Below are positions 2,021 through 59,540 of a DNA stretch of 64,000 nt, in pieces (positions within the stretch are counted from its first letter, which is position 1; each line of letters opens with the position of its first letter). The DNA is taken from contig CAWJQC010000007.1 in NCBI GenBank assembly GCA_963844965.1, forward strand, positions 128,001-192,000. The letters run 5' to 3'. This DNA comes from an uncultured bacterium. GTDB taxonomy: Bacteria; Patescibacteriota; Minisyncoccia; UBA6257; 2-01-FULL-56-20. The notes under the pieces are model-generated. The model saw only the letters and a program-made list of their open reading frames with translations. It did no database searches and was not told the origin of the DNA. The position numbers and the translations under genes are program-made.

Positions 2021-2701
2021 ATGAGCGAGCGGAACGTCAGTTTAATACTTTTTATAATATCTTTGATTGCGATTTTCACCGCTTTCGCGTTTTACGCCGC
2101 TTTTTACTTCACGACTTCGTTTTTGATTCACGACAGCGTGAATAAAACCTTGCTTTGGAGCGGGCTTTTTGACAGGCAAATTCGGGTTCAGGCGGAGAAA
2201 AAAGTGAACAGCTCCCCCGCCGTTCCTTCGGGTCAGATTGATACCTCAAATTGGAAAACCTACCGCAACGAGAAATACGGATTTGAGGTAAAATACCCGG
2301 CAGAATTAGAGATACGCAGTCCTTCGGAGAGCCCTCTTCCCGGTGAGCTCATGATCCACATTATAGCCGATGACTATAAAAACACCGAAGAGGGACCGGC
2401 TGCGTTTTATGAAGGCAAGGATGAAATTATATGGAAAAGCCGATTGTCTCACGAAACTTCTTATAAAGTTGGCGATCAGTGCCTAGAGGGAGATTGGGGT
2501 TTCGGGACTTACAACAGGGAAGAAATAAATTGCACAGTTTTTAATCTGCATCCGTATGCGATTAAAGAGGAGGTACCCAACATTGTGGAGCTCAGTTTGC
2601 CCACACAAAATTTCGACCTAACAATAGAAATTTATTATAGAAAATACTCTGACGAAGTTTTGCAGCAAATCCTCTCCACGTTCAAGTTTATTCAAACATA
2701 A
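2021..2701 (+). CDS. membrane-anchored hypothetical protein carrying the conserved block DTSNWKTYRNEKYGFEVKYP and ending TFKFIQT
   Basis: ATG at 2021 followed by an N-terminal TM helix. It is a paralog of 5582..6304. Confidence 0.55.
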   Translation: MSERNVSLILFIISLIAIFTAFAFYAAFYFTTSFLIHDSVNKTLLWSGLFDRQIRVQAEKKVNSSPAVPSGQIDTSNWKTYRNEKYGFEVKYPAELEIRSPSESPLPGELMIHIIADDYKNTEEGPAAFYEGKDEIIWKSRLSHETSYKVGDQCLEGDWGFGTYNREEINCTVFNLHPYAIKEEVPNIVELSLPTQNFDLTIEIYYRKYSDEVLQQILSTFKFIQT

Positions 2702-2793: not shown

Positions 2794-3243
2794 ATGCTCA
2801 TCTATATCGGCGCGGACCACCGCGGGTTCAATTTAAAAGAGCGGATAAAAGGTTTTCTGCGCGAACGCGGCTATGAATCTTTTGACGTCGGCAACGCGAA
2901 GTACGACGCGAACGACGATTACCCGGATTACGCCGAGAAAGTCGCGAAGGGAGTGGCGGCCGAACCGGGACGAGATAAGGGAATTCTGATCTGCGGTTCC
3001 GGAGTCGGGATGGATATCGTGGCGAACAAGTTCAAAGACGTGCGCTCCGTTTTGGCTCTTAGCACCGACCATGTTTTTGACGCCCGTCACGACGACAACG
3101 TGAACGTTTTGAGCCTGGCGGCTGATTTTATTACCGAGGAGGACGCCTTCAAGATTGTGGGGATCTTTTTGGAGACACCGTTCGCCGGAGATGCCAAGTA
3201 TAAAAGGCGGCTTGAAAAAATTTCCCAAATAGAGAACCGCTGA
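2794..3243 (+). CDS. rpiB: ribose-5-phosphate isomerase B
   Basis: IGADHRGF and ICGSGVGM motifs; 149 aa. Confidence 0.9.
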   Translation: MLIYIGADHRGFNLKERIKGFLRERGYESFDVGNAKYDANDDYPDYAEKVAKGVAAEPGRDKGILICGSGVGMDIVANKFKDVRSVLALSTDHVFDARHDDNVNVLSLAADFITEEDAFKIVGIFLETPFAGDAKYKRRLEKISQIENR

Positions 3244-42125: not shown

Positions 42126-42425
42126 GTGACTAACAAGTATAATTCGGTTATTTATACTGGTATCACGAACGACATCGTGCGGCGAATGGGTGAGCATGTT
42201 CGCAAAGCGGTTCCGGGTTTTACATCAAGATATAGTGTATGTAAATTGGTGTGGTTCGAAGAATTCAAGACACCGGAGGAGGCCATCACCGCAGAGAAAC
42301 GAATCAAAGGGTGGGTGCTAAAAAAGAAAGTGGCGTTGATCAAAGAGAAAAATCCTGAATTCATAGATTTATTGCATGGAGATCCTTCGGTTTTGCCTCA
42401 GGATGACAATGGGGAGAGGCGTTGA
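42126..42425 (+). CDS. GIY-YIG nuclease family protein (UPF0213/YhbQ-like)
   Basis: SVIYTGITNDIVRRMGEH...KLVWFEEF GIY-YIG core. Confidence 0.75.
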   Translation: MTNKYNSVIYTGITNDIVRRMGEHVRKAVPGFTSRYSVCKLVWFEEFKTPEEAITAEKRIKGWVLKKKVALIKEKNPEFIDLLHGDPSVLPQDDNGERR

Positions 42426-50506: not shown

Positions 50507-50586
50507 GGGCCCCGTAGCGCAGATTGGTCAGCGCGCCCGACTGTTCAAGCGGGAGGTCGCTGGTTCGAATCCAGCCGGGCCCACCA
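50507..50586 (+). tRNA. tRNA gene with CCA. The acceptor, D and T arms are canonical (given one extra C in the 5' acceptor), but the anticodon arm is irregular (4-bp stem cccg/cggg with a 10-nt loop actgttcaag). Identity unresolved; Asn-GTT is one possible reading.
   Basis: T-arm gctgg-ttcgaat-ccagc, D-arm gcgc-agattggtca-gcgc, 3' end cgggccc-a-cca. Confidence 0.55.
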
Positions 50587-50614
50587 AATCTTTAGCTCTT
50601 TGGTTTTTGTTTGT

Positions 50615-50703
50615 GGCGGGATGGCGGAGTGCTAATCGCGGCAGGCCGTAACCCTGCTCTCCCATCGCGGAGTTCGAAGGTTGAAATCCCTCTCTCGCCA
50701 CCA
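50615..50703 (+). tRNA. Type II tRNA, Tyr-like (anticodon GTA), with an atypical C33 and an A51-C63 mismatch; encoded CCA
   Basis: Acceptor ggcggga/tctcgcc, anticodon arm gcagg-ccGTAac-cctgc, variable arm ctcc-catcgc-ggag, T-loop ttgaaat. Confidence 0.55.
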
Positions 50704-50717
50704 AATTTTTTGGATTC

Positions 50718-50788
50718 GGCGCGGTCGTCAAGTGGCAAGACTGAGGGCTTGCAAGCCCTTATCGGGGGTTCGATTCCCTCCCGCGCCT
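50718..50788 (+). tRNA. tRNA-Cys (anticodon GCA)
   Basis: Acceptor ggcgcgg/ccgcgcc, discriminator U, loop ttGCAag, T-arm ggggg-ttcgatt-ccctc. Confidence 0.8.
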
Positions 50789-51455
50789 ACACCCTACACA
50801 TTTTTTGAAACTAAAATGTGTAGGGCTCTTTCTCTCAGTCTCGGCAACCCCGACGTAAAGTCGGGGTTAAAGTCAGCATTGGGATGGTTGGCATTTCCGC
50901 CGCAAGGCGGAAAATTAAGAGCGAATGGTGGATGCCCTTGACATCAAAAGGCGACGAAGGACGCGGCGTAGCGGCGATACGCCTCGGGGAGGTGCGTAGC
51001 AACCTGTGATCCGGGGATTTCCGAATGGGGAAACCCAATTGAGCAAACCTCAATTTTTTTGCCGCAAGGCAAAAAGCAAACCCGCTGAAGTAAAACATTC
51101 CAGTAAGCGGAGGAATAGAGAACTAATGTTATTCCCTTAGTATCGGCGAGAGAAAAGGGAAGAGCCTAAACCTAAGTTTTCGCAAGAAAAGTTTGGTGTT
51201 ATAAGGTAAAAACACTTTGGATATAACGTTGAGCGTTATCCGCCAACGGCGGAGCGGCGACCAGCGTTATATCTAAAAAGGAGTTACAAATTGATTTGTT
51301 AGCCGAAGCCCACTGGAAAGGGGCGCCAAAGGGGGTGATAGCCCCGTAGGCGAAAACGAATCAACTTCTCGTTTTTATCCTTGAGTACTCTGAGGTAAAT
51401 TAGCTTCGGAGGAATTCGCCTGTACTATCAGGCAAGGCTAAATACTTTTGATGAT

Positions 51456-51492
<37 letters not shown>

Positions 51493-51688
51493 CAGGCCGG
51501 TGAGGCCGTTGAAATAGAACCTGAAACCATTCGTTTACAAGGAATTGAACCACGAACGTTCTGCCGCAAGGCGGGACGAGTGGGACAATGTGCCTATTGA
51601 AGAATGAGCCAACGACTTATTTTGCATTGCTCGTGTAAGCATCTATAAGATGCGTACGCACAGCGAAAGCGAGTCTTAATAGGGCGAA

Positions 51689-51972
51689 AACCATCTCAAA
51701 TTTTTGGACTGAAAAATAAAAACCGGTCAGTTTTTAGCTGCCGGTCTGCGAGATACCAATTCTTGTTCTAATTTTCTGACCTGAGCGTCCAGTTTTTCTT
51801 GAAGGCCACGATGCCTCAAGTATCTCCTGCCGCTTACGTGCGATCGATGTTTTTTCCTGGTCCAGATGGAATGTTGGGCCACGCAAACTCCTTTTGTCGG
51901 GCGACTGTAGATCTGGAAGGATTTTAGGATGAGCCGAATAGAAAGTCAACAGTCCAAAAATTTGAGATGGTT
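51689..51972 (+). other. Intervening sequence A in 23S helix 25 (about 284 nt), closed by a perfect 23-bp inverted repeat (aaccatctcaaatttttggactg / cagtccaaaaatttgagatggtt)
   Basis: The flanking rRNA sequence AATAGGGCG / GACCCGAAGCC matches the helix-25 IVS site. Confidence 0.7.
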
Positions 51973-52486
51973 AGGCAGTGCAACATAGACCCGAAGCCAG
52001 ATGAGCTTGCCTTGGCCAGGGTGAAATCCGCCGAAAGGCGGATGGAGGCCCGAACTGGTGGGTTGTTCAAAACCTTCGGATGAGCTGAGGTAAGGAGTGA
52101 AAAGCTAATCGAATCTGGTAATAGCTGGTTCTCTCCGAAATAGTTTTACGACTAGCGGCGCAGAAAATTTCGCGGGGGTAGAGCACTGGATGATTCGTAA
52201 AGGCCGAAAGGCCGACGAATCAATCAAACTCCGAATACCGCGATTGGAACCTGCGCTAGTCAGACTGCGGGGGCTAAGCTCCGTGGTCGCGAGGGAAAAA
52301 GCCCAGATCGTCAGCTAAGGTCCCTAAATCCATGCTAAGTGTTAAAGGTAGTCTTCTGCCATAAACAGATAGGAGGTTGGCTTAGAGGTAGCCATCCTTT
52401 AAAGAGTGTGTAACAACTCACTATTCGACGGCAGGGGGCGCGAAAATGTACCGGGGCTAAGCATGGTACCGAAGCTACGAATTACC

Positions 52487-52587
52487 TTGTGCTCCGCACA
52501 AGAATTTTCAGGTAATAATTTTCAATTTTCAAATGGTTTGGAAATTGTAAATTGCAAAATTGGAAATTCTCGCGCGCAGCGCGAGGT
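52487..52587 (+). other. Intervening sequence B in 23S helix 45 (about 100 nt): terminal hairpins gtgctccgcac and ctcgcgcgcagcgcgag around an AT-rich palindrome
   Basis: Sits between GAAGCTACGAATTACC and GTAGTGGTAGGAGAGC, the helix-45 IVS site. Confidence 0.65.
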
Positions 52588-52884
52588 AGTGGTAGGAGAG
52601 CATTCGTATTGCACTGAAGCTCGACCCGCGAGGGCGAGTGGAGCGGTACGAAGAGACAATGTTGGTATGAGTAACCACAATCCCAATGAGAAATTGGAAC
52701 CCCGAAAATCCAAGGTTTCCGTGGCACTGGCAATCAACCACGGGTTAGGCGGCCCTAAGCCGATCCCGAAAGGGGCAGGCGATGGACAGACGGTTAATAT
52801 TCCGTCCCTTCCCTATGGTTATCTGCCGCATGACGGAGGAAATAAGCTTGCGTGCCTTATTGGTTTGGCATGGTTTGCCTCAAA

Positions 52885-53033
52885 GCGTGTCTCACTGCGT
52901 TCGACACTATAGTTAAACAATTTTTCAGTTAACGAGTTGCGAGTTAACGAGTTGAAAACAAAAAACCCGTTAACACGTTAACTCTTTAACTCGTTAATAA
53001 TTAATTATTGGGTGGCGAGCGGAGCGAGGCACG
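52885..53033 (+). other. Intervening sequence C (helix 58 region), a member of the CGTGYCTCACTNNCGTTCGRCAC ... GAGCGGNGCGAGGCACG family
   Basis: Closing helix cgtgtctc / gaggcacg; interior gttaacgagtt repeats and their inverse. Confidence 0.65.
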
Positions 53034-53237
53034 TTGGAGGCCGACCGAAGGTTCGGTTTTTACCGGGCCGACGCAGGCGAAGAGCCTTCCAAGAAAAGCG
53101 CGGCGGTCACGCCGTAGAGAATCCGTACCGGAAACCGACACAGGTGGATTGGGCGAGAAGCCCTAGGGGAACGAGTGATTTGCCTCTAAGGAACTCGGCA
53201 AACAAGCGGCCGTAAGTTAGCAATATGGCCTGCCCGA

Positions 53238-53353
53238 CCGTGCCTCACTGCGTTCGGCGCGGAATTTAAAATTTTACAATTTTTAATTTTCAAACTGTTT
53301 GCAAAATTGAAAATTATATATTGAAAATTCCGCACGAGCATAGCGAGGTGCGG
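53238..53353 (+). other. Intervening sequence D (helix 63 region), same family
   Basis: Closing helix ccgtgcctc / gaggtgcgg (G-U compensated); interior aattttcaaa / tttgcaaaattgaaaatt palindrome. Confidence 0.65.
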
Positions 53354-54297
53354 TTGGGCCGCAGCGAAAGTCCCTTTGGCGACTGTTTACCAAAAACACA
53401 GCTCCCTGCGAACTCGCAAGAGGATGTATAGGGGGTGACGCCTGACCGATGCGAGAAGGTCAAGGCCGACGGTGCACGTAGCACATAGCATGTAACACAA
53501 AACAAGAAAAAATAAATAAAACCTGCTCCATGTTACATGTTGCGTGCTGCGTGTGCTGATTGGCTCAAGCCCTCGTCAATGTCAGCGGTAACTATAACCG
53601 TTCTAAGGTAGCGCAATTCCTTTTCGGGTAAGTTCCGAAGCGCACGAAAGGCGTAACGATCAAAGGACTGTCTCAGAGGCAAGCTCGGTGAAAATGCGAT
53701 TCCCGTGAAGACGCGGGATACCTGCAGCGGGACGAAAAGACCCCGGAAGCTTTACTGCAGCTTGGTATTGTTTCTAGGGCTTTGATGCGTAGCGTAGTGG
53801 GGAGCCTTTGAAGCTCCGCTCTCGGGCGGGGTGGAGGCGACAATGAAACACCCATCTTCAAAGTTTTAGCGACTAACCAGTTGGGGACCCTACACTCTCT
53901 AGATAAATTTTGGAAATCCAGAGAGTGTAGGGAAACCCAACCGGGACAGTGCTTGGTAGGCAGTTTAAATGGGGCGTTTTCCTCCAAAAAAGTAACGGAG
54001 GAGTTTATTAAGGTCGGCTTAGCCCGGATGGAAATCGGGCAGGACGTGCAAACGCAAAAGCCGGCTTAACTGCAAGGCCTACAAGCCGCGCAGATGCGAA
54101 AGCAGAAGTTAGTGACCCGACCACACATTATAGAATGGTGGGAGACACCGGACAAAAGCTACTCCGGGGATAACAGGCTGGTGAAGTCCGAGAGTCCCTA
54201 TCGACGACTTCGCTCGGCACCTCGATGTCGGCTCGGCACAGCGCGGGGGTGAAGAAGCTCCCAAGCGTTTGGCTGTTCGCCAATTAAAGTGCCACGT

Positions 54298-54338
<41 letters not shown>

Positions 54339-54456
54339 TGCTGCAGGCGTTTACACTTGAGGGGAGTTGGCCCTAGTACGAGAGGACTGGGCTGAACTGA
54401 CCTCTGGTCTACCGGCTTTGGTACCAACTGAAGCGCCGGGTAGCTATGTCGGGAAG

Positions 54457-54490
<34 letters not shown>

Positions 54491-54510
54491 ACCCCAAGAT
54501 TAGGTGTAGT

Positions 54511-54648
54511 CGTGCCTCACTATCGTTCGGCACGGTATCGATGCAAATATACTAATCGTACTAATGATGCGAATTTGATTCCATTGGTATCATTAGCATT
54601 CACTTGCATATTGGTATCGATACTCGTGATGAGCGGCAGCGAGGCACG
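54511..54648 (+). other. Intervening sequence E (helix 98 region), same family
   Basis: Closing helix cgtgcctc / gaggcacg; interior palindrome gtatcgatgcaaatatactaat ... attggtatcgatac. Confidence 0.65.
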
Positions 54649-54961
54649 ACAAGGTTTCGTTGAAGACTACAACGCATATAGGCTCTAGGTGTAAGATCCG
54701 TAAGGATTTCAGCCAAGGAGTACTAATAACCTGTTTTGCCAACCATCCCAATGCTGACTTGTGTGCTGTTTTGGAGAACCGCGGTTCGATTCGCTCCAGC
54801 GGCGAATCGCCCGCTGCTTCTCGCTCCGACGGCTCGCTTCAGGCGAGACCAAGCCCGTCGGAGCTCCGAAAGCTTCTCCAAAACAGCACACTGCGTCCGT
54901 TCAGAAAGTTTAGGTGTTTTCGCGAAGCGAAAACAGCAATTTAAAGATTAAAACGACTCTT

Positions 54962-56354: not shown

Positions 56355-56804
56355 TCAAGAGCCTAATTCGTGCACTTTGCCGCGGCCGGCCTTCTTCTCG
56401 CCGGTTATCTTTTTATTTTTTAGTCGTTCTTCACGGGCCGAGTGGGGCACTTTTGTCGCGATGCGCGGGGCGCACTCGGCGAGCGCTTCGTTCACGAAGC
56501 GGTTGAGTTTTTCCGCTACAATGTCTTTGTTCTGCTTCTGCGTTCTTTGTGATTGTTCATAAAGAACTACCTCACCTACGTCATTCACACGGTTCGCGAG
56601 CGGAGCGTATGCCAATATTTTTTCTTTTTGTTCGTCACTCAGAACTTTTGATCCGCGGACATTCCAGCGCAAAACCGCCTTGGTCTCCACCTTGTTTACG
56701 TTTTGCCCGCCTTTGCCGCCGCTCCGCGCATGGGTGATCACGTATTCCGATTCGGGGATAGTAAGCTTGCTGCTCATTTCGTTGTCATTGGTTTCAAGGC
56801 CCAC
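56355..56804 (-). CDS. arfB: alternative ribosome-rescue factor ArfB (peptidyl-tRNA hydrolase with a GGQ motif)
   Basis: SGGKGGQNVNKVETKAVLRW GGQ domain plus a basic C-terminal tail; 149 aa. Confidence 0.8.
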   Translation of the reverse strand: MGLETNDNEMSSKLTIPESEYVITHARSGGKGGQNVNKVETKAVLRWNVRGSKVLSDEQKEKILAYAPLANRVNDVGEVVLYEQSQRTQKQNKDIVAEKLNRFVNEALAECAPRIATKVPHSAREERLKNKKITGEKKAGRGKVHELGS

Positions 56805-56858
56805 AATATCAATTATTTTTTATTTCCGCGATATTATCAAGTTGTGAATTATGCGCGT

Positions 56859-56887
56859 TTGACTTGTGGAGCGCGGTCGTCTATAAT
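56859..56887 (+). promoter_or_regulatory. Promoter TTGACT-17-TATAAT upstream of rpsB
   Basis: Hexamers at 56859-56864 and 56882-56887. Confidence 0.6.
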
Positions 56888-56897
56888 TTTCTCTTAT

Positions 56898-57714
56898 ATG
56901 GCTGATATGGCTGAAGATAAATTGGCTGCCGCTGGCGGCCAGACAATTGCATATCCGGAAGAAGCTTCCCGCGAAATGATTGACGCGGGTGTTTTCTGCG
57001 GCCGCAAGAAGTCAAAGATCAACCCGAAGATGAAAGACTACGTCATCGCTAACCGCGGCGGCATCGGAATCATCAATTTGGCGAAAACCGTTGAAGCTGT
57101 GGACAAGGCCGCCGGACTTCTAAAAGAAAAAGTCAAAGGCGGCGGTCTCCTGCTTATTGTTGGCACGCAACCTCCTGCCGAGGAAGGTATTTTAAAACTG
57201 GCCAACAAATTTAACCTGCCGAGCGTGACTACGAGGTGGGCCGGGGGAACCATTACGAATTTCAAGATCATTTCCAAGCGGATCGAATATTTTAAAAAAC
57301 TTCGCGGTGACCTTGCATCCGGAGCTTTGACGGATAAATACACCAAGAAAGAACGCCTGATGCTTGAAAAGGAATTGGGCCGCCTTACGGAACTTTTCGG
57401 CGGGCTTGAAAGTTTAACAAGAGAACCGGACGTGCTGATAATTATTGATCCGAATCTTCACGAGCACTGCGGTTCGCGAAGCAAGGCGCATGAAGATCCC
57501 CGTGATTGCCCTGGCAAATGTTGATGCCGACCCGGATATGGTGGAATACCTCGTTCCAGGAAACGATAAATCGCGCAAGAGTATAAATTGGTTTTTGGGA
57601 AGGATTGAGTCGGCAGTGGAAGAAGCCGCGGCTATGCGCGCATCCGCCAAACTTGCCGAGGAAAAAGCGAAGGCAGAAACCCCCCCGGCAGATAAGGCAA
57701 AAAATAGTTTATAA
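56898..57714 (+). CDS. rpsB: 30S ribosomal protein S2; +1 frameshift at about 57465
   Basis: NPKMKDYV, GIGIINL and VGTQ motifs. The C-terminal part (AVREARRMKIPVIALANVDADPD) is in the next frame (ORF 57445..57714). Confidence 0.85.
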
Positions 57715-58652: not shown

Positions 58653-58735
58653 GCGCAGGTGGCAGAGCGGTCAATTGCACCAGACTGTAAATCTGGCGCC
58701 TTCGGGCTACGCAGGTTCGAATCCTGCCCTGCGCA
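58653..58735 (+). tRNA. tRNA-Tyr (anticodon GTA), type II
   Basis: Acceptor gcgcagg/cctgcgc, anticodon arm ccaga-cuGUAaa-tctgg, variable arm gcc-ttcg-ggc, T-loop ttcgaat. Confidence 0.85.
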
Positions 58736-58740
58736 CAAAT

Positions 58741-58766
58741 AAAAAAGCCCAAATGGGCTTTTTTAT
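58741..58766 (+). terminator. Intrinsic terminator (aaaaaagccc-aaat-gggctttttt)
   Basis: Perfect hairpin flanked by an A-run and a T-run. Confidence 0.6.
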
Positions 58767-58829
58767 TTGTGCGCCTTGCGACATTCAGTTCTGTCCCGCG
58801 CGTGAAGTGCGCCGTGCTATAATTAAGCT

Positions 58830-59012: not shown

Positions 59013-59122
59013 GAATTGGAGCACTGTCCGAAAGATTTTTTGTCAAAATTGTTTGAGGGTCGTCTGCTTCGGAACCCTGATATTTGCGCGATTTTGCATT
59101 TGTATGCATAATTTGATGGCGA

Positions 59123-59325
59123 GGGCCAGTAGTTTAGTGGCAGAACACCTCAGGCGCGCAACCCCGCACCAAAAAGCAAACCGGGCCTGTAGCTCAGTGG
59201 CAGAGCATCCGGTTTGCATCCGGAAGATAGGGGTTCGATTCCCCTCGGGTCCACAACAAAAATTTTGCTTTTTTGGTACGGGGCAAGTGAGGAGATCGCG
59301 GGTCCGATTCCCGCCTGGTCCACCA
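59123..59325 (+). tRNA. Split tRNA-Ala-like gene. The 5' half (59123-59152: acceptor, D-arm, 5' anticodon stem) and the 3' half (59288-59325: 3' anticodon stem, variable loop, T-arm, acceptor, CCA) are separated by 135 nt that contain a complete tRNA-Ala(TGC).
   Basis: The halves pair (gggccag/ctggtcc with G3:U70; cctca/tgagg; D gttt/gaac; T gcggg/cccgc). They are paralogous to the inner tRNA-Ala but carry compensatory changes. Confidence 0.5.
59183..59253 (+). tRNA. tRNA-Ala (anticodon TGC)
   Basis: G3:U70, anticodon arm tccgg-ttTGCat-ccgga, T-arm agggg-ttcgatt-cccct, discriminator A. Confidence 0.85.
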
Positions 59326-59384
59326 CGTTACGGTCAGAAGGATTCCATTTTTTCCGCCGCTGCGGTAAGATATTTCTGAACTAT

Positions 59385-59473
59385 GGTGGGGTGGCCGAGT
59401 GGTTGAAGGCGACGGTCTTGAAAACCGTTATACCCCCAAAAGGGTATCGTGAGTTCGAATCTCACCCCCACCG
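59385..59473 (+). tRNA. tRNA-Ser (anticodon TGA), type II
   Basis: Acceptor ggtgggg/ccccacc, discriminator G, loop cuUGAaa, long variable arm ataccc/gggtat, T-loop ttcgaat. Confidence 0.85.
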
Positions 59474-59540
59474 CAGAGTTGGAAAAGTTCCATCTTTGAC
59501 TCCACCGATTTTGTTGGTGTATAATTTACTTACCATTCAG

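Follow-up and report, generated by a model that had tools for sequence, protein, structure and literature searches.

A tRNA-Ala gene nested in the anticodon loop of a second tRNA-Ala gene, and related nests in Patescibacteria

How can one tRNA gene come to lie inside another of the same specificity, and what becomes of the gene that it splits? The question is raised by a locus in the window (the whole stretch of 64,000 nucleotides that was analysed), where the initial annotation had reported a complete tRNA-Ala in the anticodon loop of a second tRNA-Ala. Bacterial tRNA genes are held to be structurally uniform, with self-splicing introns as the sole known interruption (review PMC4033280). Bacterial nests of one tRNA in another were not described in the paper library that was searched, in line with the annotation, which knew of none. 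A recurrent class of tRNAs housed in the anticodon loop of a gene for the same isoacceptor would represent a new kind of disrupted tRNA gene, unexpected in bacteria. Standard annotation gives only the inner gene of such a nest, leaving the outer genes (hereafter shells), orphan halves and decay products invisible in Patescibacteria genomes, and gene callers render these as spurious hypothetical proteins (P0003, P0004 and P0041).

Anatomy and predicted expression of the nested locus

Reading of the sequence revealed a tRNA-Ala(UGC) gene on the forward strand, as are all features described here, split into a 5' half (59123..59152) and a 3' half (59288..59325) with 135 bp between them. The 5' half, which pairs with 59288-59321, consists of the acceptor strand (59123-59129), the D arm (59132-59146) and the 5' strand of the anticodon stem (59148-59152); the 3' half provides the 3' strand of the anticodon stem, the variable loop, the T arm, the 3' acceptor strand, A73 and CCA. 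All stems pair, as originally described: the acceptor GGGCCAG/CTGGTCC is fully paired, including G3:U70, together with the D (GTTT/GAAC), anticodon (CCTCA/TGAGG) and T (GCGGG/CCCGC) stems. Joined via a TTTGCAA loop, the two halves are recognized by ARAGORN as tRNA-Ala(tgc). The T loop, TCCGATT, has C55, the sole case among the tRNAs of the window. The insert does lie in the outer anticodon loop; however, the loop is not merely interrupted, as first thought, but altered as well. On the 5' side GGCGCGCAA (59153..59161) replaces the TTTGCAA loop of intact homologues, and on the 3' side stands CAAG (59284..59287), of which CAA corresponds to anticodon-loop positions 36-38, followed by one extra G.

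The 135-bp insert consists of a second, different tRNA-Ala(UGC) within an inverted repeat. This inner gene, which we term type B, is complete except that CCA is not encoded (59183..59253); it scores 71 bits against the Rfam tRNA model and is called tRNA-Ala(tgc) by ARAGORN at 59183-59254. Repeat search and minimum-energy folding delimit the 5' arm CCCCGCACCAAAAAGCAAA (59162..59180) and the 3' arm TTTGCTTTTTTGGTACGGGG (59264..59283), with the unpaired spacer CAACAAAAAT (59254..59263) between the inner tRNA and the latter. The arms had been described as a 10-bp repeat and a separate ccccg/cgggg pairing; the pairing holds, but the two elements belong to one nearly continuous helix of 19-20 bp, paired save one C.A mismatch and one bulged T. 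The flank duplex reaches -25.1 kcal/mol, compared to -8.9 +/- 2.8 for shuffled sequences (0 of 2000 shuffles attained it), and ranks second strongest among the 166 tRNAs examined. The secondary structure prediction proposed as a check gave a nested double cloverleaf as the minimum-energy fold of 59123-59328, with z = -2.45 and 3 of 200 shuffles equally good. In its intron mode ARAGORN labels 59123-59325 an intron-containing tRNA; this mode mostly fuses neighbouring tRNAs, and the call was set aside.

The terminal inverted repeats, with arms of 19-20 bp, are a trait of miniature inverted-repeat transposable elements. The dispersed multiple copies expected of such elements were not seen within the 64-kb window, where the arm motif is single-copy in a search at up to 3 mismatches and no similar CCCC...GGGG hairpin occurs elsewhere. 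Related arms turned up nowhere but within tRNA genes and, as a hairpin, in the variable loops of shells.

A candidate promoter for the whole nest is the -10-like hexamer CATAAT (59107..59112), read from the sequence 10 nt upstream of the outer tRNA; owing to its weak -35 element, it was missed by a consensus scan. The intact homologue in contig L104 is preceded by a similar CATAAT at a distance of 11 nt. From 59123 to 59182 there is no -10-like box; lacking a promoter-like box of its own, the inner gene is probably transcribed from the promoter of the outer one. The transcript would probably present a cloverleaf at the tip of a long helix stacked on the outer anticodon stem. We propose that RNase P and 3'-end processing, by RNase Z or exonucleases, release the inner tRNA prior to CCA addition, that RNase III may cut the long helix, and that the outer halves would remain as a non-decoding shell. 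The two-piece outer tRNA, which the initial annotation expected processing by RNase P and RNase Z to leave, is a plausible predicted fate of this transcript. We infer that the inner tRNA is the working decoder, and presumably the only one. By its sequence, the shell of the window is unable to decode, even if religated, since a loop made of GGCGCGCAA and CAAG restores neither U33 nor an anticodon.

Homology of the shell and recurrence of nesting

Comparison with intact genes revealed that the shell is identical at 63 of 65 positions to the tRNA-Ala(UGC) genes of contigs L104 and L082, far beyond chance, and that it differs from the inner tRNA at 25 of 65. The TTTGCAA loop occurs in forty intact genes of the shell's type. 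L099, L101 and L129 have a loosely syntenic locus at which the gene is intact, with CCA, and has homologues of the DsbD-like genes of the window and of the genes around them on its downstream side. In sequence, the two outer halves make up an ordinary tRNA-Ala(UGC) allele resident in a Patescibacteria lineage. The compensatory differences between inner and outer stems, taken earlier as a sign that the halves had evolved as one molecule, show only that the two genes are different tRNA-Ala alleles. The inner tRNA is 2 nt from those of L132 and L133, and 4 nt from that of L134.

The arrangement is recurrent. Besides the nest of the close relative represented by L134 and L135, at least eight further nests (Ala-in-Ala, Ile-in-Ile and Thr-in-Thr) were found in independent metagenome and MAG contigs, and the anticodons of the inner and outer tRNAs are always equal. 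L132 and L133 have an almost identical inner tRNA in the same kind of outer gene, but with different flanks; other nests occur in L098 and L112 (Ala and Ile each), L087 and L082 (Ala) and L038, L044 and L130 (Thr). Where the junction is clean, the insert termini read YCCCG...CGGGR. With a caret marking each boundary, the junctions are TTTG^...^CA(A/T) for Ala and ...^TAA for Thr and Ile, which places the insert at position 35/36. In L132 and L133 the full junction is TTTG^TCCCG...CGGGA^CAA, with TCGGGA^CAA TGAGG on the 3' side as against CAAG in the window, and L082 has an exact TTTG^insert^CAT. As to the target-site duplication expected of miniature inverted-repeat elements, these three show none, while in the window, L134 and the group of L098, L087 and L112 the arms have CAA at either side; the last three retain TTTGCAA on the 5' side. 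Removal of the insert yields a 7-nt loop with U33 and an anticodon in L132, L133, L082, L098, L087 and L112, but not in the window or L134. The basal motif of the 5' arm, CCCCG(C/A)AC(C/T)AAAA, is shared by the window with L098, L087, L112 and L134, and a basal helix with a mismatch after 5 bp is seen again in several lineages. The inserts measure about 110 to 330 bp and include mosaic tRNA fragments and small GIY-YIG ORFs at some loci; small GIY-YIG genes also lie beside tRNA genes at several related loci. Additional hairpins are found in the D, variable or T loop of some related shells.

Two further features concern the relation among alleles. Nesting is reciprocal: the outer sequence of the window is the inner tRNA of L082, and the shell of L082 is of the window's inner type. 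In addition, L082 has a run of two 3' halves, both with CGGGA^CAT in front. The shells also form a series of decay. That of L132 combines a mismatch in the acceptor stem with C73 and with an anticodon stem into which a palindrome has been inserted; L133 has lost the 5' half by deletion, and the L083 group lacks the 3' half. Stems are broken in L130 and L044, and only 3' halves with hairpin insertions remain in L117 and L106.

In 80 GTDB genomes compared by synteny through tsf, the pair tsf-tRNA-Tyr is retained, but conservation of the locus extends no further and no orthologous nest appeared. Homologues of the adjacent membrane protein yielded one distant match with no tRNAs beside it, pattern scans of viral contigs gave nothing but one chance match within a coding region, and two window proteins had no exact match on record. 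An antisense ORF, searched against 1.84 billion representative proteins, hit mainly tandem tRNA arrays of unrelated organisms, with no context.

Of the readings offered initially, the one in which a tRNA gene received a segment bearing another tRNA is the best supported, by the match of the shell to a resident allele, the intact gene in L099, L101 and L129 and the decaying shells elsewhere. We favour it as probable, if by a modest measure: a tRNA-bearing cassette would have entered a resident gene of the same isoacceptor, leaving an inner tRNA that decodes and a shell that does not; such nests form a recurrent class in Patescibacteria. The incoming tRNA would compensate for the gene destroyed by its insertion, and older shells would then decay. 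The recurrence, the shared isoacceptor, the 35/36 junctions and the YCCCG...CGGGR ends imply a specific process of insertion or gene replacement. The mechanism may be gene conversion resembling homing, the transposition of a small element with inverted repeats, or the decay of a larger element that had integrated; the cassette of the window neither contains nor adjoins a gene for a transposase, integrase or endonuclease.

A bolder proposal, possible rather than probable in our view, is that these are self-propagating tRNA-replacement cassettes of Patescibacteria, each a complete tRNA between YCCCG...CGGGR ends that enters a gene of the same isoacceptor at 35/36. Such a cassette would destroy the resident gene while taking over its function and promoter, and successive invasions would generate Russian-doll tRNA genes and rapid allele turnover, which would have left its mark in the nests of allele A in B and of B in A and in L082, with its 3' halves from two generations. 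In some lineages the shell may persist as a structured tRNA-like RNA in two pieces that accepts alanine. If mobile, the cassettes would have found a new route into an essential single-copy gene without host death, by bringing the replacement along, and would account for the fast turnover of tRNA-Ala, tRNA-Ile and tRNA-Thr alleles in these reduced genomes.

Conservation of the shell and alternative explanations

Comparison of the locus in relatives, suggested at the outset, revealed the same cassette with the same junctions at the same locus in L134 (a JGI metagenome) and L135 (an NCBI MAG). A downstream tRNA-Ser(UGA), located in the window at 59385..59474 by ARAGORN and alignment, is a conserved neighbour that marks the locus common to the window, L134/L135, L132 and L133. 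Between the window and L134, the DsbD-like protein is 82% identical and the tRNA-Ser about 93%. Unconstrained DNA is near saturation, with differences at 17 of 28 upstream positions and at 6 of 10 in the internal spacer (59254-59263), which itself looks unconstrained by sequence. Conserved parts include the helix arms and both junction loops, GGCG(C/T)GCAA and CAAG: GGCGCGCAA is kept as GGCGTGCAA in L134, and CAAG is identical. The distal arms of the shell differ at 16 of 55 positions (29%), yet neither genome has lost any of the 21 shell pairs, five of which changed on both sides. A formal count over the window and L134 gave 51 pairs with 100% of cells paired; across distant nests MAFFT lost the register of the variable apical helix, where covariation was followed by eye only. 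This retention of pairs in the face of 29% arm divergence may mean either that the shell is under selection or that the cassette entered two different resident alleles.

The first of these options leads to the alternative that survives best, which is conceivable but in our estimate doubtful: the nest arose by insertion and is now a functional composite maintained by selection, either as an RNA scaffold or as a two-piece RNA that accepts alanine without decoding. The outer cloverleaf and long helix might stabilise the precursor or direct its processing, or the annealed halves, with G3:U70, A73 and CCA, might persist after excision of the inner tRNA. Neutral decay of the shell after a shared insertion should have left broken stems by now, yet none of the pairs is broken where unconstrained DNA is about 60% different. 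The conserved arms and odd junction loops, the G3:U70 and A73 retained in both shells and the basal helix motif, with its mismatch after 5 bp, recurrent in lineages point the same way, as do the L134 shell, in which every canonical T-loop and D-loop residue is present, and the fold of the L134 nest (z = -4.7). However, shells are clearly dispensable in relatives (L133, L132 and the L083 group), and the shell of the window carries C55. Moreover, the arm variants of the L134 shell are all known in intact alleles (acceptor and D arm in L136, T stem in L111, L128 and L130), so that entry of the cassette into two resident alleles explains the covariation without selection on the shell. To our knowledge, no function requires such a shell RNA. 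If the shell is selected nevertheless, bacteria would have in its halves a counterpart to split tRNAs, with a bearing on the old debate over the origin of tRNA from halves.

Might the insert instead be the remnant of a prophage or island that entered the anticodon loop site-specifically and was later deleted down to a tRNA and its ends? We consider this unlikely. Anticodon loops of tRNAs are classical integrase targets, the inverted ends YCCCG/CGGGR would correspond to the two arms of an attP-like core, and the insert lengths, mosaic tRNA fragments and small GIY-YIG ORFs of some loci would fit such an origin. However, products of tyrosine recombinases have a full overlap at both junctions, whereas the loop in L132, L133 and L082 is split cleanly between TTTG and the 3' remainder, without duplication. 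No nest contains integrase or element genes, and a complete tRNA is carried where integrative elements normally rebuild their target.

That the 135 nt are a true intron, with the outer halves ligated into a second functional tRNA-Ala, is very improbable. The exact junctions of L132 and L133 (CAA) and L082 (CAT), where precise removal restores a normal loop, and the TTTGCAA retained 5' in L098, L087 and L112 would suit an intron, and self-splicing introns at 35/36 of other tRNAs are described in Patescibacteria (PMC13011429). In the window and L134, however, no excision yields a 7-nt loop with U33 and an anticodon, and the non-tRNA remainder is just 64 nt of plain helix. An Rfam scan of the nest found tRNA as the sole family above threshold; the group I model RF00028 had no match over 59050-59400, nor any group II model in the nest, even at E <= 10. 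Nor did a search of the nests of seven related loci reveal a group I core, although it found the group I introns in the L087 23S. Group I introns need a 5' exon ending in U and an intron ending in G, whereas in the clean junctions of L132 and L133 the exon ends in G and the insert in A. The archaeal bulge-helix-bulge (3-nt bulge, 4-bp helix, 3-nt bulge) is also absent, as the initial annotation had suspected; the junction of the window has a 9x4-nt internal loop, 5 bp of CCCCG/CGGGG and a 1x1 C.A mismatch before the long helix.

That two tRNA-Ala genes were wrongly joined in assembly, as a chimera or by collapse, is scarcely credible: the source is a metagenome-assembled genome and tRNA genes have short identical stretches in common, yet the same nest and junctions in the independent records L134 and L135 exclude the misassembled tandem array that had been a concern, related nests occur in at least ten contigs of several other studies, and the complementary flanks and exact reconstruction of one tRNA from the halves are unlike a chimera.

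Comparison with known systems

Several known structures were considered for the junction and the halves and then dropped. A kink-turn and an integron attC-like core each lack a required motif (GA and GTT/AAC, respectively). A permuted two-piece tmRNA was not found by ARAGORN, and RF04321 scored 28.6 bits against a threshold of 47, matching only the T arm and acceptor.

The nest resembles the intron-containing and split tRNAs of archaea such as Nanoarchaeum, in that the gene is disrupted in or near the anticodon loop and its parts are held by the tRNA stems and an extra helix; the extra hairpins of some related shells likewise recall archaeal tRNAs with multiple introns. It differs from split tRNAs in its bacterial host, in the missing bulge-helix-bulge, in the complete tRNA of the same isoacceptor inside, and in an outer loop that cannot be restored here. 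We know of no splicing endonuclease for the nest, nor is one visible in the 64 kb of the window.

Self-splicing group I introns interrupt the anticodon loops of bacterial tRNAs, including at position 35/36 in Patescibacteria (PMC13011429). The nest shares the phylum and the kind of host gene with them, and its cleanest relatives the position as well, but it has a simple 64-nt helix instead of a core, the wrong nucleotides at the splice sites and a tRNA as cargo.

Compared to tRNA fragments left by integrative elements, the target is again a tRNA gene, and orphan halves and serial fragments occur in L082, L117, L106 and L133. Unlike att duplications, the halves are complementary parts of one gene rather than a repeated 3' segment, neither junction rebuilds the tRNA, the target is replaced by a complete gene, and the insert is 135 bp without an ORF, integrase or element genes.

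Free-standing homing endonucleases, such as SegB of phage T4, drive the replacement of tRNA gene regions (PMC2330249). A similar targeted DNA event would replace a tRNA allele or region here, and GIY-YIG genes lie near tRNAs at related loci; the window cassette differs in having no endonuclease gene in or beside it, and the outcome is nesting instead of allele exchange.

RNase III cuts intervening sequences out of rRNA, and the ends are not religated. The rRNA of Patescibacteria often carries insertions, as does the 23S of the window. The predicted fold of the nest shares with these sequences an extended helix in place of a loop of a structured host RNA, which would likely be fragmented and held together by its own pairing. 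In the nest, however, the host is a tRNA, which would no longer decode once its anticodon loop is opened, and a functional gene sits at the end of the helix.

Architecture of the nested tRNA-Ala gene

The window comes from the genome of a member of the Patescibacteria (candidate phyla radiation); the short EF-Ts encoded there has a top identity of 78%, to Paceibacteria, Liptonbacteria and Jorgensenbacteria MAGs, and its tRNA-Tyr is of the long-arm bacterial type. As the initial annotation described, a complete tRNA-Ala is nested in the anticodon loop of a second tRNA-Ala gene. The inner tRNA-Ala(UGC) (59183-59253) is canonical, being called by ARAGORN and scored at 71 bits by Rfam, whereas the outer halves (59123-59152 and 59288-59325), termed the shell, together form every stem of the second: the acceptor stem GGGCCAG/CTGGTCC, including G3:U70, the D stem GTTT/GAAC, the anticodon stem CCTCA/TGAGG and the T stem GCGGG/CCCGC, followed by A73 and CCA. 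Among the tRNAs of the window, only the shell has C55 in its T loop. The two inverted repeats initially described around the inner tRNA do pair, but are not separate; they form a single, nearly continuous helix of 19-20 bp, CCCCGCACCAAAAAGCAAA / TTTGCTTTTTTGGTACGGGG, interrupted by a single C.A mismatch and a single bulged T. The secondary-structure prediction proposed with them showed that the 206-nt transcript reaches its energy minimum as a nested double cloverleaf. The nest structure exceeds chance expectation; the flank duplex (-25.1 kcal/mol) was equalled by 0 of 2000 shuffles, and for only one of the 166 tRNAs in the collected sequences do the flanks pair more strongly.

Joined via TTTGCAA, the outer halves are called as tRNA-Ala(UGC), and they match the intact genes of two related loci, L104 and L082, at 63 of 65 positions. 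They are the ordinary resident allele of the clade, because 40 of the 49 loci found by scanning metagenome contigs with the outer D arm and anticodon-stem strand hold the same kind of tRNA-Ala(UGC) gene intact (type A: D stem GTTT/GAAC, CCTCA-TTTGCAA-TGAGG). The inner gene of the window defines type B (D stem GCTC/GAGC, TCCGG-TTTGCAT-CCGGA) and differs from the outer gene at 25 of 65 positions. Three related contigs, L099, L101 and L129, represent an unoccupied site, loosely syntenic with the window locus; each has an intact tRNA-Ala(UGC) with CCA upstream of homologues of window genes (identities of 62% for the DsbD-like gene, 73% for the next gene and 60% for the VKOR-like gene).

Other features of the window are unusual as well. 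The neighbour of the nest, tRNA-Ser(UGA), is bracketed by an imperfect inverted repeat (59350-59366 / 59470-59486, 82% complementary), and the 3' end of tRNA-Tyr runs into a perfect 21-bp palindrome, GCGCACAAATAAAAAAGCCCA/TGGGCTTTTTTATTTGTGCGC (58731-58774), resembling a bidirectional terminator. The gene for ribosomal protein S2 shows up as two overlapping ORFs (56703-57524 and 57445-57714); its frame shifts near 57469 (57440-57475), with ...IIIDPNLHEH in one frame and AVREARRMKIPVIALAN continuing in the next. Possible causes are a sequencing error, decay to a pseudogene and programmed frameshifting. Directly upstream of the 23S rRNA, with no 16S before them, lie three unusual tRNAs (50508-50788): an Asn-like tRNA with an 8-nt anticodon loop, CTGTTCAA (50508-50586), a second, weaker tRNA-Tyr(GTA) (50615-50703, 41 bits), and a third with discriminator U (50718-50788), whose TTGCAA gives a 6-nt or 8-nt loop and which reads as Cys-like GCA, or as Ala-like UGC with stem mismatches. 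The 23S rRNA match (50905-54743) spans 3839 nt compared to 2925 in the model; the ~900 extra bases inserted contain only one sizeable ORF (52406-52912) and match no Rfam intron family at E <= 0.01.

Recurrence and reciprocal nesting

The nest is real and recurrent, and independent records carrying it rule out the misassembled tandem array that the initial annotation had considered. The comparison with related genomes that it called for revealed, besides the intact gene at the loosely syntenic site, nests in several lineages. The nearest, in L134 (JGI metagenome) and L135 (NCBI MAG), were found with a protein query that is a spurious ORF running through the nest. They share the arms and the odd junctions of the window (CCTCA GGCGTGCAA ... 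CAAG TGAGG) and the downstream tRNA-Ser(UGA), their inner tRNA differs at 4 of 71 positions, and their DsbD-like protein is 82% identical. Two further loci, L132 and L133, found with an antisense ORF as protein query, have an inner tRNA only 2 nt apart from that of the window, a type A outer gene and an adjacent tRNA-Ser, as in the window, in flanks unlike those of the window. Their junctions are exact, with TTTG before the insert TCCCGA...TCGGGA and CAA TGAGG after it, i.e. at anticodon-loop positions 35/36.

Further nests are of Ala and Ile in L098 and L112, of Ala in L087 and L082, and of Thr(UGU) in L038, L044 and L130; several of these lie in the 16S-23S spacer. The inner and outer tRNAs have the same anticodon in all nests. 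The insert ends are alike across the Ala, Thr and L098 Ile nests, with (T/C/G)CCCG at the 5' end, CGGG(A/G) at the 3' end abutting loop positions 36-38 (CAA, CAT or TAA), and a helix base of 4-5 pairs followed by a mismatch or bulge. The window, L134 and the L098 Ile nest have the short motif CAAG between the 3' end and these loop positions; the arms of the L112 Ile nest are unlike the others. Comparison by eye of the CCCCG subfamily showed conservation in the basal half of the helix, whereas the apical half is wholly different yet complementary (GCAAA/TTTGC in the window, TTTTG/CAAAA in L098 and TTTGT/ACAAA in L112).

In the window, L098, L132 and L133, type A occupies the outer position, and in L082, L087 and L112 the inner one; the shell in L082 matches the inner gene of the window in type. 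Each of the two alleles is thus found nested in the other, a pattern incompatible with a single ancient duplication. Two successive type B 3' halves in L082, each preceded by CGGGA-CAT, suggest more than one round. The stems of the shell are perfect in the window and L134 and broken in L130 and L044; L132 has an acceptor mismatch, C73 and a palindrome within the anticodon stem, the 5' half is deleted in L133, the L083 group is without the 3' half, and in L117 and L106 orphan 3' halves are left, their T loops carrying hairpins.

A GC-rich palindrome of the type CCTGCCTGCCGGCAGGCAGG recurs in L038 (8165-8185), L132 (~2235-2255, minus strand), L133 (~2905-2925, minus strand) and downstream of tRNA-Ala in L108. 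It sits in the D loop or anticodon stem of outer shells as well as in spacers, and looks like a REP-like repeat piling up in dead tRNA shells. In the outer tRNA-Ala, the 3' half has a hairpin in its variable loop, CCCCGCACCG...CGGTGCGGGG, whose ends are those of the cassette arms (L098 555-590, L087 131-166 and L112 1853-1888, oriented coordinates), and D-loop hairpins occur in outer tRNAs of L112 (Ala and Ile), L038 and L130. The same replacement pattern is also seen in other tRNAs: in L133 (2960-2676, minus strand), 15 nt from the 5' part of a window-like tRNA-Ser, ~180 nt and a different complete tRNA-Ser; in L134 (1368-1545) and L136 (780-970), a complete tRNA-Ser and then orphan tRNA-Ser 3' parts with insertions; and in L032 (7185-7290), a complete tRNA-Thr and then an orphan tRNA-Thr 3' half.

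Origin of the insert and fate of the shell

We propose that a tRNA-carrying cassette entered a gene of the same isoacceptor and took over its function; the anticodons would match because a single-copy essential gene tolerates only same-isoacceptor inserts. Between a two-piece outer tRNA and the insertion of a tRNA-bearing segment, the two readings put forward initially, insertion is the better supported, and we lean towards an insertion that left a non-essential shell. A homing-like or otherwise site-specific event is favoured by the junctions at positions 35/36, which are exact and duplication-free, and a small inverted-repeat transposable element by the inverted ends and, in one subfamily, what may be a repeat of CAA. 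A larger integrated element, since decayed, is possible, although no integrase came to light. Small genes of the GIY-YIG type (Pfam PF01541) adjoin tRNA genes in L082, L112, L003, L020 (two copies) and L022; with T4 SegB as a precedent (PMC2330249), they are a lead to the mechanism rather than evidence for it. The L082 ORF (1640-1345, minus strand, 86 aa) is flanked by a perfect 19-bp inverted repeat, CCCCCACACCAATTGAGTT / AACTCAATTGGTGTGGGGG, and lies between two copies of the tRNA-Ala acceptor 5' strand, GGGCTCG and GGGCCCG, each of which matches one of two downstream 3' halves in an interleaved, not nested, order. A GIY-YIG-like ORF of the window (42126-42425, 99 aa), between murA and mreB and distant from the nest, is weakly similar to it.

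Between the window and L134, 17 of 28 positions differ in the upstream DNA and 6 of 10 in the spacer inside the cassette, the spacer to tRNA-Ser (56 nt vs 7 nt) being not alignable, compared to 16 of 55 in the distal arms of the shell, 5 of 89 in tRNA-Ser and the four in the inner tRNA. The shell arms therefore change at a rate between the lower one of working tRNAs and the higher one of free DNA. Across the whole nest structure, 100% of cells are paired, with double changes in 6 pairs. Neutral decay since a shared insertion is excluded for this pair, because all 21 shell pairs hold in both, five of them with changes on both sides. Possibly, the two lineages split first and the same cassette then invaded a different resident allele in each: the shell arm variants of L134 are all present in intact alleles elsewhere (its acceptor and D arm in L136, its T stem in L111, L128 and L130), and the window shell is nearly identical to intact type A genes. 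Selection for the fold of the shell would fit the conserved junction loops; we consider a maintained functional shell less likely than a non-essential one. The shell loop in both is GGCG(C/T)GCAA plus CAAG, so U33 and the anticodon are not restorable by any excision.

Transcription would begin from CATAAT (59107-59112), a -10-like box 10 nt 5' of the shell and a candidate start signal, which a consensus promoter scan left unflagged because its -35 is weak; the intact gene of L104 has a similar box upstream. Reading from the shell start to the inner tRNA revealed no -10-like box, so the inner gene would rely on the promoter of the shell. The precursor would fold as the nested double cloverleaf, from which RNase P would cleave at 59183 and a 3' activity after 59253, followed by addition of the CCA that is absent from the inner gene. 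The 20-bp helix may be a target of RNase III, and the shell halves would be by-products kept annealed by 12 tRNA base pairs and the helix remainder.

Comparison with known systems

According to reviews, only group I and II introns interrupt bacterial tRNA genes, which are called uniform (PMC4033280), and a recent survey of tRNA introns in Patescibacteria covers group I introns only (PMC13011429). Full-text literature search for nested, embedded or intron-encoded tRNAs returned nothing comparable, and the nest was not found in viral contigs. Rfam search of the nest gave no family but tRNA at threshold, and no group I or II intron signal even at E <= 10, by the same search that detected the 23S group I introns of L087. 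Moreover, clean junctions have G before the insert and A at its end, where a group I intron needs U and G. No bulge-helix-bulge is present at the junction, in line with the initial annotation, which had seen no obvious one. A permuted tmRNA scored 28.6 bits against a threshold of 47, the match being limited to the T arm and acceptor strand.

Altogether, the nest lacks the defining features of archaeal spliced or split tRNAs, group I introns, integrase att remnants and tmRNA, and shares with small transposable elements the inverted repeats only. It is a variant, without earlier description in the literature searched, within the class of disrupted tRNA genes and insertions into tRNA genes, and would be categorically new if the mobility of the cassette or the function of the shell proved true.
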